Part shown: positions 1 to 18,549 of the stretch, one piece after another
Layout of the letters: each line of letters opens with the position of its first letter
How positions within the stretch are numbered: position 1 is the stretch's first letter
Assembly: GCF_046105845.1 (NCBI RefSeq)
Contig: NZ_CP151004.1
DNA: 64,000 bases
Strand: one strand, 5' to 3'
DNA from: Escherichia coli
Lineage (GTDB): Bacteria; Pseudomonadota; Gammaproteobacteria; Enterobacterales; Enterobacteriaceae
The notes under the pieces: model-generated
Databases searched by the model: none
The model's input: only the letters and a program-made list of their open reading frames with translations
Told to the model about the DNA's origin: nothing
Translations under genes and position numbers: made by a program

Positions 1-3000
1 GTGGTGTATTCCACATTGTTAATCGTAACGGTAAGCGGCGTGCCTTCAGCCAGCCCCGAGCTACTGCCGCTGACCACCAGCGCCTGCCCGTGCTCGATGA
101 TATTGACCACATCATCGCCTGCCACCGTATCGACCCGCAGACCGGGCAGATTGGCGTCGATGGTGATATCCCGCGTGCCGCTGCCGGTGTTGCCGTTTTG
201 ATTGGTGACCGAGGCGCTCACCGTTAAATCGCCATTACCCAGCGCCTGAATAGCGTCCGCCGGAATGCTCACGCTCCAGCTTAATCCCGGCTGTACGGTG
301 GTGGTGTAGGTATTGCCACCCAGCGTAACGGTTACCGCGTCGCCAACGGCGGCTCCAGTCACCTGCCCGCTGATGGTTTGCGCGACGCCCGCTTCGGCGG
401 CGTTAATAATATCGTCGGTTGCCACCGGGTTAATGGTCACGCCGGGCAGCGCGCTGTCAACCAGCACGTTATGGCTGGCGGTGGCGCTGTTGCCGATATT
501 ACTCGTCACCGCCGCCGTTACCGTGTAGTTGGCCTGGCCCAGTGCGGTTACCGCCGATGCCGGAACGGTGACGCTCCAGTTGCCGGAGGCGTCGGTCGTG
601 GTGGTGTAATTTTGCCCGTTCAGCGTCACGGTGATGGCGGTATTGGCTGGCTGATCGCTGGTACCGGTAATCTGGACATCAGCCCCTTTTTCGCTGGCGT
701 TTATCACATCATCGCCAGCAATGGTGTTAATACCAATTACTGGCGCGGCGGTATTGACCGTGACAGTCAGTGACTGGCTGCCCGTGTTTCCGGCGCGGTC
801 AGTCACTGACACGTTGATCGGATAACTGCCATCCACCAGTCCGCTGACAACGGAAGCCGGAACGCCCAGGCTCCAGTTGCCGGAACCATCCACCACCGTG
901 GTGTAATCCACATTATTCAGCGTCACGGTGACGATATCGCCCGCCTGAGCGCCAGTAACCGTGCCGCTGATGATTTGCGCCTGGGTGTGTTCCGGCGTGT
1001 TGATGACGTTATCGGTCGCCACCGGATTAATGGTTACCACCGGCGGCGTGGCATCGACCAGCGCCACGCGTGAGACGCTGGTCGGGTTACCGGCGATATC
1101 GTTCACGCTGGCGGTGACGGTGGCGTTGCCGTCAGCCAGTGCGCCAACGTTGGCGGCGGGAACGGTCACGCTCCAGGTGCCGTCTGGCTGCACGACGCCC
1201 TGGTACGTCTGCCCGTTCAGCGTCACCGTTACCGTCTGCCCCGGCTGGGCGTCGGTGGTGCCGGTGATTTGCAGATCCTGACCACTTTCGGCGGCGTTAA
1301 TGATGTTATCAGCGGTCAGTGGATCGATACTTAAGGCCGGGGCCTGGCTGTCGACGGTAATGGTGCGAGAGGTGTTGCCGGTATTGCCGCTGAGATCCGT
1401 CACAGAAGCGGTAATCGCCACCGCGCCGTCAGGCAGATTTCCCATCGCGGCGGCAGGTACCGTCAGACTCCAGGAGCCATCAGCCTGCACGGTAGTAGTA
1501 AAACTCTGTCCAGCCAGGGTTACTGTGACGGTTTGTCCTGTCTCGGCCTGTTGAGTGCTACCGGTAAGGGTCAGTGGCGCACCTTTTTCTGCGCCACTGA
1601 TAATGTCATCGCCGGAGACGGTGTTAATGGTGATTAACGGAGAGACACCGACCAGCGTGATTGCTCGAGACGCCGCGCCGGTATTTCCTGCAGTATCTGT
1701 CACGGTGACGAAAATCGTATTGGCTCCGCGATCCAGCGTGCGGGTTACCGCTGGGTCCAGCGCCACATTCCAGCTGCCATCTGCCAGCACAATGCCCGTC
1801 AGGACATGAGTGCCCAATTTCACCGTTACCGTATCGCCAGGAGAAGCACCGCTGACTTGTCCGGAGATGATCTGCGCGACGGCCTGCTCAGCATTATTAA
1901 GAATATCGTCGCCCGCTACGGTATTAACACTGACCACGGGTGCTGAGGTATCTACCGTGAAATTCGCGCTGTGGCTGGTGCTGTTCCCAGCCCGATCGCT
2001 GACACTGGCATTGACAGCGTAATTACCCTCCGCCAGCGCCTGGACTTCCGTGGCTGGCAGCGTCACTTGCCAGGTTCCGTCGCTACCGACGGTTGCTGTA
2101 TGGCTTTTCCCGTTGACGGTCAGTGTTACGGTTTGCCCCGCTTCTGCATTCGACGTGCCGCTCAGTACCAGCGCGACGTTATGTTCCGCAGCACTGATGA
2201 TGTTGTCCTGAGCGATGGTGTTGATGGCAAGCGTTGGCGGTTGGGTATCGACCGTTAAAAGCTGCGCGCCGGTGACCGTATTGCCTGTGGCGTCTTTCCC
2301 GCTGACCAGCACTGCCTGATTCCCTTCGCCTAACGCCTGTGCATCGGCGGTCGGCACCTGCACGCTCCAGGCACCGTTAGCGCCTACGCTGGTGGTGTAG
2401 GTTTTGCCGTTTAGCGTAACGGTGAGTTCTGTTCCCTGCGCCAGATGGCTACTGGTACCAGAAAGCGTAAACCCGGCGGCCTGTTCGCTGGCGTTAATAA
2501 TGTTATCGCCTGCGGTGGTGGCAACCTGCACGCTGGCCTGACTATTGTCGATGGTTAACGTTATCGAACCGGCGTCAGTGATGGTACTGCCGACAATTTG
2601 CACCACTGACCAGGTATGTTCACCTGCACTTTGCGTGGGTAACGAGACACTCCAGTGACCGTTGTTGTCTACCTGAGTACTGGCAATAGTATTGCCGTTA
2701 CTGTCTTTAATCTGAATAGTCGCCCCCGCCTGCCCGCTGCCGCTAAAGGTTGGCGTGGTATCATCGGTGATGTCATTGGTGGCGAGAATGCCGCGCTGAT
2801 CGCCCTGATTATCGATAACTAAAAATGATGGTGTGGCAACACCCGGTTCAGGCACAGGCTCAGCGGGTGGCGTAGGGTTATTAATCACTTCCGTTTTCGA
2901 GTCGCCATCACCACCGCTTGCCAGCAGTGCACCAAGCGCACCACCACCTACCGCCGCCCCCGCCAGCCAACCCCACGGGAAGGCGCTGGTCTGAGCAACG

Positions 3001-3368
3001 GTATCAAGAAATGGCGCAATGCTTTCAATCGCAGTGGTCTGGGCAGTCAGTTCTACGGGGGCTAATCCACCCGCAGCAGTATCGGCGAAGGTGACATGGG
3101 TTAGCTGTTGCCCATCGGCAAACACCAGTTCCGATTGTTCAGCTGTATTCGCCGCTTGCAGGAAATAACCGTTGCAGCGGATCACCGTGCCGTCCTGCAT
3201 ATAGATCAGCAGGTCATTTCCTTCACGGACGTAACGCGCAACGGCAGAGGCCTGAGCATGAACCTGCACCACGGAAGGCTCATAAATAACAACCGTGACG
3301 TCGCCAGGATTAATCAGCGTTTGTTTGACGGATGTTTTACGCGAAATAACATCAATAATCAGGCTCAT
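1..3368 (-). CDS. Giant tandem-repeat Ig-like adhesin, probable type I secretion substrate; 5' portion only, gene continues past window start
   Basis: Manual minus-strand translation from ATG at 3368-3366 (AGGAA 8 nt upstream) reads MSLIIDVISRKTSVKQTLINPGDVTVVIYEPSVVQVHAQA... with no stops over the stretch checked (3061-3368); downstream shows ~100-aa Thr/Val/Gly-rich repeats. Absent from ORF track because no stop lies in the window. Confidence 0.7.
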   Translation of the reverse strand, partial: MSLIIDVISRKTSVKQTLINPGDVTVVIYEPSVVQVHAQASAVARYVREGNDLLIYMQDGTVIRCNGYFLQAANTAEQSELVFADGQQLTHVTFADTAAGGLAPVELTAQTTAIESIAPFLDTVAQTSAFPWGWLAGAAVGGGALGALLASGGDGDSKTEVINNPTPPAEPVPEPGVATPSFLVIDNQGDQRGILATNDITDDTTPTFSGSGQAGATIQIKDSNGNTIASTQVDNNGHWSVSLPTQSAGEHTWSVVQIVGSTITDAGSITLTIDNSQASVQVATTAGDNIINASEQAAGFTLSGTSSHLAQGTELTVTLNGKTYTTSVGANGAWSVQVPTADAQALGEGNQAVLVSGKDATGNTVTGAQLLTVDTQPPTLAINTIAQDNIISAAEHNVALVLSGTSNAEAGQTVTLTVNGKSHTATVGSDGTWQVTLPATEVQALAEGNYAVNASVSDRAGNSTSHSANFTVDTSAPVVSVNTVAGDDILNNAEQAVAQIISGQVSGASPGDTVTVKLGTHVLTGIVLADGSWNVALDPAVTRTLDRGANTIFVTVTDTAGNTGAASRAITLVGVSPLITINTVSGDDIISGAEKGAPLTLTGSTQQAETGQTVTVTLAGQSFTTTVQADGSWSLTVPAAAMGNLPDGAVAITASVTDLSGNTGNTSRTITVDSQAPALSIDPLTADNIINAAESGQDLQITGTTDAQPGQTVTVTLNGQTYQGVVQPDGTWSVTVPAANVGALADGNATVTASVNDIAGNPTSVSRVALVDATPPVVTINPVATDNVINTPEHTQAQIISGTVTGAQAGDIVTVTLNNVDYTTVVDGSGNWSLGVPASVVSGLVDGSYPINVSVTDRAGNTGSQSLTVTVNTAAPVIGINTIAGDDVINASEKGADVQITGTSDQPANTAITVTLNGQNYTTTTDASGNWSVTVPASAVTALGQANYTVTAAVTSNIGNSATASHNVLVDSALPGVTINPVATDDIINAAEAGVAQTISGQVTGAAVGDAVTVTLGGNTYTTTVQPGLSWSVSIPADAIQALGNGDLTVSASVTNQNGNTGSGTRDITIDANLPGLRVDTVAGDDVVNIIEHGQALVVSGSSSGLAEGTPLTVTINNVEYT

Positions 3369-3470
3369 AATGGCATTCCTGATAAATGGCGCACATCCTT
3401 AGCGAGTCCATTTATCTAAATAAGACAAAGGTAATCACTTAACAACGGCCCACTATTAATAATGGCAGGA

Positions 3471-4826
3471 TTATTTCAAGTCGGGTAAGTCGTTGTATAA
3501 GCCCTGTTTAATTCCCGCTAATGGAATAAGGTTATTCACCGCAGCGGCATAATTTACGGCGGCGACCCAGCCATCATAATTGGCATTTATTTCAGCCGAT
3601 TGCGCCTGAAAGACATCTTGCTCGACGGTTAATAGATCATTCAGACTGCGTTTGCCCAATTTATATTCATTTTGGTACACTTCTCGCGTTTTGTGCGCAC
3701 TTTCGGATTGTGCTAAACCGGCTTCTTCGCGACCTCGTGCGCCGGTCCAGTTCGCATATGCCACAGACGCTCGTTGCAGCACATCCAGTTTTGCCTGTTC
3801 GACCTGCGAGGCAGAGATTTTTTGTTGCCCTTCAGCTTGTTGCACCTGGGCTGAAACTGCGCCGCCCTGATACAGCGGCGCGTTAACGTTCAGTTGTAAC
3901 TGATCATCCCAATACGAGCGGTCGCTGGTCTGGTAGCGCGTTTTGCCCCCCTGAATACTCAGCGTTGGCCAGTATTGCGCTTTCGTTTTTTCCACGCCGT
4001 ACTGTGCTGACTGGCGTAAGTTTTCTGCCGCCAGCACCAGCGGGATGGACTGGTAATCAATATTTTTCAGCGACACCGGCTGCTCGGCTAATTCAGCAGG
4101 TGGCGCGGCTATCGCCTCCGGCTGTACGCCAGTGAGCACCGCCAGTTGCGCTTTGGCGCTTGCCATCTGCGCCTGATATTGCTCCAGCGTTGAGCGCATT
4201 CCGGCAATGCGCGTCTGGGCTTGTAATTCATCCGACGATGAGTTCAGGCCAGCGTTAGCGCGCAATGCCGCCATGTTGTAGACGTTTTCCAGCGAGTGAA
4301 TATTGCGTTGAGCCGCATCGCACAAAGCCTGATAACGACTGACTTCCATATAGGCAGTCGCCGTTTTCTCTGCAACATCGGTTAAGGTTGCCATCAATTT
4401 AAAGCGGTAGCTGTCACGGGCGGCAGTTTGCAGATTGATATCGTTGTTTGTTTTACCAAAGTCATACACCAGCTGTGTCAGGGTTATGCCATACGAAACG
4501 TTGTTATCAAGCCTGCCGCTGGAATCCGTTTGTCGGGACGGCCCCGCGTTGCCGGTTAATCCAACGTGCGGATACCAGGCACTTTTGGCTTCATCAATTT
4601 GCGCTTCGCCAATGCCTATCTGCGCCGCCTGTTGAGTGACGTCGGGATTTCGCGCAAAGGCGCGTAATATACTTTCCTGTAAAGATAATCGGGCAACTGG
4701 CGTTACCGCTGGGGCGTTCGCCCATTGTGGCAGCGGTGCAGCAATTGTAGCTTCTCCCATCACCATAAAACTTATTAAAAAAATAAACCCATTATTTTTA
4801 CGGCTTTTAAACTGGAATCGCGCCAT
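3471..4826 (-). CDS. TolC-family outer membrane efflux protein, probable type I secretion outer-membrane component
   Basis: 451-aa ORF with N-terminal signal-like hydrophobic segment and TolC-like composition; sits directly upstream of the adhesin gene on the same strand. Confidence 0.75.
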   Translation of the reverse strand: MARFQFKSRKNNGFIFLISFMVMGEATIAAPLPQWANAPAVTPVARLSLQESILRAFARNPDVTQQAAQIGIGEAQIDEAKSAWYPHVGLTGNAGPSRQTDSSGRLDNNVSYGITLTQLVYDFGKTNNDINLQTAARDSYRFKLMATLTDVAEKTATAYMEVSRYQALCDAAQRNIHSLENVYNMAALRANAGLNSSSDELQAQTRIAGMRSTLEQYQAQMASAKAQLAVLTGVQPEAIAAPPAELAEQPVSLKNIDYQSIPLVLAAENLRQSAQYGVEKTKAQYWPTLSIQGGKTRYQTSDRSYWDDQLQLNVNAPLYQGGAVSAQVQQAEGQQKISASQVEQAKLDVLQRASVAYANWTGARGREEAGLAQSESAHKTREVYQNEYKLGKRSLNDLLTVEQDVFQAQSAEINANYDGWVAAVNYAAAVNNLIPLAGIKQGLYNDLPDLK

Positions 4827-5129
4827 AGATAAGTCACTTCCTTCCAGGTCATTATTTTAACTGGTTTTTATAACCAGTCTCATTTTATTAAGAAGGGTAA
4901 TAACTTGTGCATCTCTTTTGTCGATCATTGATATGGGCAAAGAAATGCAGCTAAAAAGCTTATACGTTATTTATTTAGAATACACTACGACTTTTAGATT
5001 ACCATCATACACATTAAGAATAATCCACGGTAATAAGTGATTAGCATCACAGATTTATCGCGTATATATCATTTTTTTGTGACTTATTTATTAAAGGAAT
5101 AAGAAAGGAAATTTGAATTAAAGACAAAG

Positions 5130-5152
5130 GCGCAGTACAGGCTGTACTGCGC
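5130..5152 (-). terminator. Hairpin downstream of ybaT
   Basis: Inverted repeat gcgcagtacag/ctgtactgcgc just 3' of the ybaT stop; weak U-tract. Confidence 0.4.
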
Positions 5153-5163
5153 ACAGAGAGGTG

Positions 5164-6456
5164 TTATACGGTTTTATTGCGCTTCATGACCATTGCCACA
5201 ATAAGGCTGAGTAAGATTGCACCAATAATCCATATCAACGCACGGCTGCCCTGGGACCACAGGCTGTAGATAAAGCCAACGATCACCAACAACATCACCA
5301 ACGTACCTACGATAAGAATCGGCAACGAGGCGTGAATATCATGACGCAGGCGGATCGCCACCACAAACACCGCCAGATAGCAAATCAAAAAGGTGGCGCT
5401 GGCAACGCTGGCGAGTGAGCCTAAATTTAGTGCCGCCGTCATCAGCATAATCAACACCACGACAATGATGTTGCCCCAGGTACTCTGCCGCCACAGGGAT
5501 TTATTCATTAGCTTCGGCAGTTCGCGTTCGCTGCCCATGTTGTCCATGATGTTAAACACGGCGAACAGGTTCGCGTTGATGGCTGAAGCCGTCGCCAGTA
5601 AAGCGCCGATGACGACGATCACATAACCCACATGCCCGAGCAGCGGAGAAGCAGCCTGCGCTACGGCGGTATCGGCATATTTTTCTAACTCTAATGCCGA
5701 TACATCGCTAAGCAAAACCAGCGCCAGCGAGATATAAAGCAATGTGGTAACGCCAATCGCCACCAGAAACGCCCGTGGCATAATGATCTGCGGATCTTTC
5801 ACTTTATCCGCCGCGTTCGCCATCATGCCAAAGCCCGCATAGGCAAGGAAGGTTATCCCGATACAGGAGAAGAACGCACCGGAGCTGGGGGGCGCAGAGA
5901 CGGAAATATGCGCCGGTTGCAGCGACCAGACACCGGCAATAATCAGCAATAACAGGATCATCATTTTAATGCCGACGAGGATCACTTCCAGCCGCCCTAC
6001 CGCATGGTTGCTTAAGGAGTTGAAAAGCGTCATCACCGCAATGATCCCCAACGCGTAGAGCAATATAAGGTGCTCCTCCTGACTGCCTTCATGCAAAAAC
6101 TGCACGGCATAAGCGCCAAAAGCACGGGCGACCATGGCGATGCTCACCGCCAGCGTCAACAGGTACAATAACGAGAGTGCCAGCGAAAAGACGCCGTTGC
6201 CTAATCCGCGACGAAAGAAGTCGATAATACCGCCATTGCTGGGATAGCTCGCCCCCAGGCGCGCATAGGCATAACCGGAAAACATCGCCACAATACCGCC
6301 AAAAGCAAAGGCGACCCAGGTCGAGGCTTCCATTAGCAACGCAGCCTGCCCCAGCAGCGCGAAGATCCCCGCCCCCACCATTGCCCCAATACCGATGGAA
6401 ACGACGTTCCATAGACCGAGGGGTTTGTTATCGTTATTACCTTCCGTGTTCATCAT
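5164..6456 (-). CDS. ybaT: APC-family amino acid transporter YbaT
   Basis: 430-aa polytopic membrane protein; matches recalled YbaT and is directly downstream of glsA. Confidence 0.9.
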   Translation of the reverse strand: MMNTEGNNDNKPLGLWNVVSIGIGAMVGAGIFALLGQAALLMEASTWVAFAFGGIVAMFSGYAYARLGASYPSNGGIIDFFRRGLGNGVFSLALSLLYLLTLAVSIAMVARAFGAYAVQFLHEGSQEEHLILLYALGIIAVMTLFNSLSNHAVGRLEVILVGIKMMILLLLIIAGVWSLQPAHISVSAPPSSGAFFSCIGITFLAYAGFGMMANAADKVKDPQIIMPRAFLVAIGVTTLLYISLALVLLSDVSALELEKYADTAVAQAASPLLGHVGYVIVVIGALLATASAINANLFAVFNIMDNMGSERELPKLMNKSLWRQSTWGNIIVVVLIMLMTAALNLGSLASVASATFLICYLAVFVVAIRLRHDIHASLPILIVGTLVMLLVIVGFIYSLWSQGSRALIWIIGAILLSLIVAMVMKRNKTV

Positions 6457-17111: not shown

Positions 17112-17914
<803 letters not shown>

Positions 17915-18018
17915 ATCAGCATACTTGTCCTTAGCCTTCTGCAGTGACAGCTGGTAGTACAGCGTGCTTCTGGCCAGCCCTGCAGCCTTTAACAGGTCAG
18001 ACTGGCAGTGTCCGCACC

Positions 18019-18549
18019 TCAGGCTCCGGATGACTTTCGTTTTTTCTCCAGCTCCTGGCGCTTTTTTTCCAGGAGATGCTCCTGCATGGCTTTCAGATAT
18101 GCATTTTCTGCGCGAAGATAACGCAGCTCATTCTTCATCTCTTCCGGCGTCATGTTTGCCTCGTTTTCATGGGTATCATCAGAACGGGTCATGCTTTTCT
18201 CCTTCCTGCGCCTGATAAAGGCCTCATTACCAGATTTGCGGTAGCCTTTTATCCAGTTTTTAACCGTGTTGTGGCTGGGAATGTTAAACCGGGCAGCTAC
18301 CCGGGGTAGAGACTCAGAATGCCCGAGAGCATAAAGAACCACGCAAAGTTTATCTTCAGGAGAATAGCTACGCTTGTGTCTGCAATCCAGTGCCCGAGGA
18401 CCGTGAAGAAGAAAAAGATTAATCCAGTGTGAGAGGCTGGTGTGAGAAAGTTGAAAGAGTTTTGCCGTAGAAATGATGCCTGCATGACCAGCCAGGTAAT
18501 GATTTACAGCGGCAAGTTTTACTTCAAATGAATGTTTCATAAACTGCAC
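18019..18549 (-). CDS. IS3-family transposase OrfA (HTH plus leucine zipper)
   Basis: 176-aa ORF; C-terminal heptad leucines (LRYLRAENAYLKAMQEHLLEKKRQELEKK). Confidence 0.85.
   Translation of the reverse strand: MQFMKHSFEVKLAAVNHYLAGHAGIISTAKLFQLSHTSLSHWINLFLLHGPRALDCRHKRSYSPEDKLCVVLYALGHSESLPRVAARFNIPSHNTVKNWIKGYRKSGNEAFIRRRKEKSMTRSDDTHENEANMTPEEMKNELRYLRAENAYLKAMQEHLLEKKRQELEKKRKSSGA
18061..18067 (-). other. A AAA AAG programmed -1 frameshift motif at the end of IS orfA
   Basis: Minus strand reads CTG GAA AAA AAG CGC in the orfA frame, the classical IS3-family slippery heptamer. Confidence 0.6.

Follow-up and report, generated by a model that had tools for sequence, protein, structure and literature searches.

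LapA-type adhesins, among them LapA of P. fluorescens, FrhA/CraA of V. cholerae and MpIBP, use a dedicated TolC-like channel (bioRxiv 10.1101/198937; PMC5550230; PMC6890996). The model for LapA combines a retention domain with an extended, Gly-flanked chain inside LapE (bioRxiv 10.1101/198937). For MpIBP, it was proposed that RIM, which has no transmembrane sequence, fits the TolC pore and that RIN serves as the plug (PMC5550230). Another giant adhesin with immunoglobulin-like (Ig-like) repeats, SiiE of Salmonella (encoded on Salmonella pathogenicity island 4, SPI-4), depends on a type I system for export and undergoes transient retention; at its N-terminus, a coiled coil lies between beta-sheet elements, and its retention involves the accessory proteins SiiA and SiiB (PMC12607715). 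The present analysis concerns SiiEA of E. coli, a BapA-related adhesin of a similar kind, whose name alludes to SiiE and whose gene lies at the left end of a 64,000-nucleotide stretch of contig NZ_CP151004.1 (assembly GCF_046105845.1; this whole stretch is called the window below). The anatomy, conservation and operon context of an apolar segment in the N-terminus of SiiEA, as well as the differences from LapA-type modules, are established here.

The reading frame opens with an ATG at position 3368 on the minus strand, the strand to which all siiEA coordinates below refer. Its translation starts with MSLIIDVISRK..., and the frame exits the left end of the window, with only the first 1122 residues inside. 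Judged by its model matches, the gene is E. coli siiEA and encodes an already catalogued, BapA-related type I secreted adhesin: the NCBIfam SiiEA model NF047714 scores 484 bits against a cut-off of 425 (N-terminal 223 residues), the BapA prefix-like domain model NF033677 scores 71.6 bits against 35, and Pfam BapA_N (PF22783) covers residues 5-132 at 1.4e-19. Ca2+-stabilized Ig-like repeats are recognized by NCBIfam NF033510 (Ca_tandemer, 770 bits, 9 stretches; 899 residues tested). An initial annotation of the window had proposed a type I secreted adhesin. This is borne out by the SiiEA and BapA_N matches and by a TolC-family neighbor, together with the ATP-binding cassette (ABC) transporter, the HlyD adaptor and the T1SS (type I secretion system) target domain found in E. 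coli strain 1190.

The apolar segment and its conservation in the family

A hydrophobic Gly/Ala-rich segment had been annotated at 2890-2990, and such a segment is indeed present: the peptide FPWGWLAGAAVGGGALGALLASGGDGDSK comprises residues 130-158 (2895-2981). The most hydrophobic 19-residue stretch among all 1122 residues, LAGAAVGGGALGALLASGG, begins at residue 135, with a Kyte-Doolittle value of 1.40. The longest run without D, E, K, R, H, N or Q extends over 27 residues (127-153), compared to 14 for the second longest, and the longest run consisting only of G, A, V, L, I, F, W, M, P, C or Y extends over 22 residues (129-150), compared to 8 for the second longest. When the sequence was shuffled with its composition preserved, an apolar run of 22 was reached in 4 of 5000 cases. 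Taken together, hydropathy, run lengths and shuffles therefore indicate that the segment is real and not an effect of composition.

The placement of the segment was deduced from an AlphaFold2 model built with a 44-sequence family alignment. Residues 1 to ~122 (3003-3368) are predicted with confidence to form an all-beta domain, with a predicted local distance difference test (pLDDT) score mostly >90; this BapA prefix-like (BapA_N) domain is the presumed plug of the retention module and has no signal peptide. A short spacer follows (residues 123-129, 2982-3002), along which pLDDT falls from 97 to 60, and then the apolar Gly/Ala-rich segment proper, FPWGWLAGAAVGGGALGALLASGG (residues 130-153, 2910-2981), with a Trp at its N-terminal edge. 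Residues 128-153 are modeled as coil with pLDDT <50, and from there to residue 190 the model reaches intermediate confidence. The segment has an acidic/Gly end, DGDSK (residues 154-158, 2895-2909), the counterpart of a poly-Gly/Ser/Asp/Asn stretch in relatives, and a Pro-rich variable linker, TEVINNPTPPAEPVPEPGV (residues 159-177, 2838-2894), leads on to the first Ig-like domain, which is of the Big_13/Big_6 type (residues 178-275, 2544-2837; Pfam Big_13 187-274 at 5.5e-10, Big_6 199-256 at 1e-10). Pfam (BapA_N 5-132; first Ig-like matches beginning at residues 187-199) and AlphaFold2 thus agree with the initial annotation in placing the segment between the N-terminal module and the first Ig-like repeat. 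The Pro-rich linker is length-polymorphic at residues ~167-175 (~2844-2870), where a 4-residue EPVP indel distinguishes the window from strain 1190: the window has PTPPAEPVPEPGVATPS, compared to PTPPAEPGNATPS in strain 1190, 4 residues shorter.

The description of the segment as membrane-like turned out to hold only marginally. The summed insertion energy of the SiiEA segment is about +3.2 kcal/mol (a simple sum on the biological hydrophobicity scale, with the scale values of Hessa et al., 2005), and across the family the sum has a median of +2.5, being positive in 97 of 101 sequences and <=0 in 4. A positive-inside charge bias was not found across the family flanks, which are acidic on both sides and nearly free of Lys and Arg (K+R 0.13 upstream and 0.82 downstream, compared to 2.8 and 2.4 for D+E). 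The segment resembles a single-pass transmembrane helix in its uncharged run of 22-32 residues and in the Trp at one edge, and the hydrophobicity of a few family members would suffice for insertion; however, it differs in the positive insertion energy of most members including SiiEA, in the acidic flanks and in that no helix is confidently predicted. For the hydrophobic homolog P0055, a single-sequence AlphaFold2 model places a helix at residues 132-145 with very low confidence, which is a hint at most given the poor quality of the model (mean pLDDT 43). The apolar segment therefore fits neither a classical transmembrane helix nor a signal anchor. A Pfam glycine-zipper domain was also considered and rejected, as no match was obtained even at E <= 10.

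Relatives of SiiEA were collected by an exhaustive search of residues 1-175 against 1.84 billion representative proteins, which returned 159 sequences; a word-indexed search yielded E. coli-like fragments only. The named relatives are all Proteobacteria (Enterobacterales, Acinetobacter, Pseudomonas, Microvirga, and Micavibrio), and some are labeled “BapA/Bap/LapF family prefix-like domain-containing protein.” At the same place, 89 of 94 homologs have an apolar run whose best Kyte-Doolittle value over 19 residues is >=1.2, starting at residues 102-156; across the 94, the best value has a median of 1.75 and a maximum of 2.5. Of 101 BapA_N N-termini, about 90 contain such a run of Gly, Ala, Leu, Val, and Ile at residues ~115-160, with poly-Gly/Ser/Asp after it. 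The apolar core consists of A (26%), G (25%), L (17%), V (10%), I (8%), and W (3.5%), with small-xxx-small Gly patterns in 57 of 94 cores, and the 15 residues past the core have a median G/S/D/N fraction of 0.63. The uncharged run has a median length of 28 in the family and is only ~8 residues away from the folded domain. A Trp marks its N-terminal edge in 55 of 95 sequences, with Trp accounting for 0.8% of the residues in these N-termini. Leu, Val, Ile, and Trp are kept and charges are excluded in Enterobacterales, Acinetobacter, Pseudomonas, and Alphaproteobacteria.

Among the 12 closest homologs (about 40-61% identical), residues 132-150 form the best-conserved block of the first 200, with an identity of 0.69, compared to 0.64 for the domain core, 0.11 for the preceding spacer (block 123-131) and 0.26 for the Pro-rich linker. 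At closer range, the segment shows no difference between the window, strain 1190, and the E. coli-type N-terminal fragments compared. Judging from these alignments, the apolar run is the part of the linker that is under selection.

The BapA/Bap/LapF prefix-domain adhesins, such as Salmonella BapA, P. putida LapF, and the Bap-like proteins of Acinetobacter, constitute the family to which SiiEA itself belongs, and no material difference to them is apparent. They have in common the BapA_N domain, the apolar run followed by poly-Gly/Ser/Asp, tandem Ig-like repeats, and an operon for a TolC-like protein, an ABC transporter, and a membrane fusion protein (MFP). Indeed, three distant loci of BapA_N adhesins, from Pseudomonas, Yersinia, and Micavibrio, each have their own genes for an outer-membrane efflux protein (OEP), an ABC transporter, and an MFP. 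In the literature on SiiEA, on the prefix-like domain, and on the hydrophobicity of BapA and LapF, no description or test of the apolar segment was found, although an earlier description is possible. In a gene and family that have already been catalogued, what seems to be new is the apolar run as a conserved, selected hallmark that separates BapA-class from LapA-class N-termini.

Comparison with LapA-type modules and with SiiE

The N-terminus of LapA was used to retrieve 60 LapA-type N-termini (“retention module-containing protein”); the query matched database proteins at <=99% identity. LapA-type modules have the same layout as SiiEA, i.e., a domain that folds independently of calcium, then a segment rich in Gly (residues ~105-155), and Ig-like extenders. 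However, there is no sequence match between the two, and a LapA-type retention model did not match SiiEA at E <= 0.01. Searches of the PDB with the SiiEA protein and with the family profile returned no significant solved structure. A fold search with BapA_N found weak resemblance to RTX beta-rolls only, and MpIBP RIN was not among the matches listed.

The two types also differ in the linker region. LapA-type N-termini have a conserved cleavage site at residues ~100-120, past which come a poly-Gly/Ala run that is not hydrophobic and “HSFV(M/L)L,” whereas BapA-type N-termini lack a conserved site and have Leu, Val, Ile, and Trp in the run. The motif [T/A/P]AA[G/V] is present in 58 of 60 LapA-type sequences (residues 60-170 scanned), compared to 5 of 101 BapA-type sequences (residues 60-125 scanned). 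In the same two sets, the median of the best 19-residue Kyte-Doolittle value is 0.92 for the LapA type and 1.68 for the BapA type, and the longest apolar-only run has a median of 9 and 20 residues, respectively.

SiiEA itself contains a TAAG (residues 97-100, 3069-3080), which matches the LapG consensus exactly and whose residue number is close to that of the LapA site. According to AlphaFold2, it is located in a loop between strands 89-94 and 105-107 of the folded domain. It is not conserved outside E. coli, and the E. coli-type fragment P0003 has AAAG in its place. As a LapG site, this TAAG was rejected on account of its position in a folded loop and its conservation in 5 of 101 compared to 58 of 60 sequences. 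The presence of a LapG-type protease or LapD regulator nearby, which the initial annotation had suggested checking, was not confirmed: in strain 1190, the one strain inspected, genes for LapG (BTLCP) or LapD were absent from the ~20 kb upstream and the ~15 kb downstream of the operon, as they were within 10 kb on either side of the three distant BapA_N loci.

SiiE is distinct in other respects. In place of a coiled coil, SiiEA has an all-beta domain followed by the apolar run, without a long helix in the AlphaFold2 model, and the siiEA island of strain 1190 contains genes for the outer membrane protein, the adhesin, the ABC transporter and the MFP only, with no additional genes. LapA and SiiE, with which the initial annotation had suggested a comparison, lack a comparable hydrophobic segment, as does MpIBP: the LapA type combines TAAG with non-hydrophobic poly-Gly, SiiE has a coiled coil (PMC12607715), and MpIBP RIM is free of transmembrane sequence (PMC5550230). 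The annotated N-terminal retention region is nevertheless right in outline, as SiiEA does have a linker between a plug-like domain and an Ig-like domain, at a position that fits the published models; it is probably not of the LapG/LapD type, however, and by sequence matches neither a solved structure significantly nor the LapA-type retention model.

Possible roles of the segment in export and retention

The position of the segment and its operon context match the published models for LapA and MpIBP, from which we infer that the apolar segment may be the channel-occupying tether of a LapG-independent, BapA-class retention module. Such a role appears about as likely as not. SiiEA would exit C-terminus first via the LssB-type ABC transporter, the HlyD adaptor, and the dedicated TolC-like channel. 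The BapA_N beta domain at the N-terminus would fold without calcium and, being too bulky to follow, would cause export to stall. Threaded through the secretion conduit would then remain the ~55 residues that connect this domain to the first Ig-like domain, in the order of spacer, Trp-capped uncharged Gly/Ala/Leu run, acidic/Gly stretch, and Pro-rich stretch. When extended, this linker (residues ~123 to ~177) would measure ~190 Å and thereby exceed the TolC channel, which is ~140 Å long. The apolar run would probably provide a slim, charge-free stretch in the channel beside the plug, perhaps gripping the channel, and release would be independent of a LapG-type cut.

Several points speak against such a tether. 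No experiment on N-terminus-dependent retention of SiiEA, BapA, LapF or another BapA_N adhesin was found in the literature, and Salmonella BapA is reportedly secreted and loosely surface-associated. The plug role of the BapA_N domain rests on analogy, because the fold search matched it to no solved retention domain. Moreover, there is no obvious reason why a water-filled, electronegative TolC lumen should select for Leu, Ile, Val or Trp, and the 60 LapA-type N-termini do with pure poly-Gly/Ala. Some family members appear insertable into a bilayer (Kyte-Doolittle up to 2.5; summed insertion energy <=0 in 4 of 101), which would fit a membrane better than a channel. The hydrophobicity and the strong conservation of the segment are not explained by the channel model alone, and this leaves room for rival explanations.

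One of these, unlikely in our view, is that the segment acts as a stop-transfer sequence or anchor in the inner membrane. The N-domain would stay cytoplasmic, the apolar run would be lodged in the transmembrane part of the ABC transporter or slip out of it sideways, and the next ~80 residues would run unfolded through the tunnel of adaptor and TolC. Since synthesis of the N-terminus precedes that of the C-terminal signal by minutes, folding of the domain in the cytoplasm would be possible. The ~8 residues that separate the domain from the uncharged run, the median run length of 28, which corresponds to the thickness of a bilayer, and the edge Trp in 55 of 95 sequences are also consistent with membrane insertion, as are the Kyte-Doolittle values of 2.0-2.5 reached by many members and the low-confidence helix in P0055. 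However, the summed insertion energy is positive in all but four members of the family, the flanks are acidic without a positive-inside signal, and the alignment-based AlphaFold2 model shows a coil with pLDDT <50. In addition, the first Ig-like domain would be forced to remain unfolded in the tunnel, and the equivalent region of LapA can be reached from the periplasm (10.1101/198937).

A broader version, to which we likewise assign a rather low probability, is that the BapA/LapF class has a retention mechanism of its own, in which the Trp-capped run would serve as a specific latch or stop-transfer element. By engaging the bilayer, the inner-membrane ABC transporter or the TolC-like channel at its entrance, this element would stall export without a LapG-type protease.

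That the segment is a passive, flexible spacer, i.e., a low-complexity Gly/Ala linker whose sole function is its length, is improbable. Low pLDDT and the lack of secondary structure in the AlphaFold2 model would suit a spacer, as would the Gly and Ala that account for about half of the core and the poly-Gly linker at the same place in LapA-type modules (60 N-termini; 10.1101/198937). However, a passive spacer is hard to reconcile with the conservation of the segment, which exceeds that of every other block in the N-terminal 200 residues while the true linkers on either side drift, and with the retention of Leu, Val, Ile, and Trp and the exclusion of charges from Enterobacterales to Alphaproteobacteria.

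A function after secretion is similarly improbable. Here, the whole adhesin would be released, and the run would enter the outer membrane of the same or a neighboring cell, or pack adhesins together in the biofilm matrix. The hydrophobic domains of RTX toxins set a precedent, as they traverse type I systems and then insert into membranes. BapA-type adhesins have been reported to be loosely surface-associated and to drive cell-cell contacts, and LapF was described as a “self” adhesin (PMC7616799). The small-xxx-small Gly patterns in 57 of 94 cores might point in the same direction, but such zipper patterns are expected by chance at ~50% Gly and Ala. Moreover, there is no direct evidence for a post-secretion role, and a dedicated TolC-like gene accompanies the adhesin at every locus examined, as in the retained LapA-type systems.

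Finally, LapG/LapD-regulated retention as in LapA, with TAAG 97-100 cut by a periplasmic LapG-type protease for release, is essentially excluded and was already largely refuted: the motif fits the published consensus at about the LapA residue number, and the ABC transporter matches the LssB family (TIGR03375), which includes LapB, the LapA exporter, but homologs in other genera lack the motif (5 of 101 BapA-type compared to 58 of 60 LapA-type N-termini), it lies inside a loop of the folded domain instead of after it, the LapA-type retention model does not match at E <= 0.01, and neither the island and its surroundings nor the three related loci contain a BTLCP or LapD gene.

The siiEA island and its significance

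The island adjoins ybaT and is O-island 28 of O157:H7. In the window, the first Ig-like domain is followed by tandem Ca2+-stabilized Ig-like repeats (residues 276-1122, 3-2543; NF033510), and the gene extends past the left end. Directly upstream of siiEA lies the gene for the dedicated TolC-family outer-membrane channel (3471-4826, minus strand; TIGR01844 type_I_sec_TolC, 415.6 bits against a cut-off of 225), which carries the same annotation in E. coli genomes, and beyond it ybaT, glsA, and copA. Because the window ends inside siiEA, the ABC and HlyD genes were observed in strain 1190 alone, whose locus is 98% identical. There, siiEA has a full length of 20.8 kb and is followed on its 3' side by the gene for an ABC permease/ATPase of the LssB family (TIGR03375, 835 bits), then the HlyD adaptor gene, and then cueR. 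The C-terminus of SiiEA, which the window lacks, carries a type I secretion target domain in strain 1190 (TIGR03661, 38.3 bits against a cut-off of 17.6).

By megablast, 957 of 5426 complete E. coli genomes cover the siiEA locus at >=80% of the query, with a best identity of 98.1%. As just this fraction of the genomes reaches such coverage, the island appears to be variably present or variably intact. For positions 1-5200 of the window, no complete RefSeq E. coli genome exceeds 98.1% identity, and the exact allele is not represented there. Elsewhere in the window, between ybaL and gsk, two consecutive reading frames (176 and 240 aa; 17192-18549, minus strand) resemble OrfA/OrfB of the IS3 family and look IS150-like by sequence; strain 1190 has an IS621 transposase at that intergenic site.

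In strain 1190, the exporter encoded by the siiEA operon (2006-2575, minus strand, of that locus) has an N-terminal portion of ~150 residues that resembles a degenerate C39-like domain and contains zero cysteines; its match to Pfam Peptidase_C39 is marginal (E = 0.029). From its sequence, this domain is predicted to be non-catalytic and to handle the substrate rather than act as a peptidase. Cleavage of a double-glycine leader by the transporter was accordingly ruled out, because the domain has no cysteine and matches C39 only marginally.

O-island 28 was shown to be required for adherence and early colonization of enterohemorrhagic E. coli (EHEC), in a study that addresses adherence only and does not analyze the N-terminus (PMC12758282). 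SiiEA and O-island 28 contribute to EHEC adherence and gut colonization (PMC12758282). In Salmonella, Pseudomonas, and Acinetobacter, biofilm formation is driven by adhesins of the BapA/LapF type. The mode of staying on the cell is known for the LapA class only. If the apolar segment were a mere spacer, there would be no consequence for this question. If it acts as a latch, the BapA/LapF adhesins would stand as a second class among type I substrates, one that differs in mechanism and has an intermediate either embedded in the membrane or locked in the channel. If it holds the adhesin in the secretion machine, it would offer a defined target of ~20 residues, mutation of which could separate secretion from retention; the apolar segment might then also serve as a handle for surface-display engineering and as a simple sequence signature of the BapA class.

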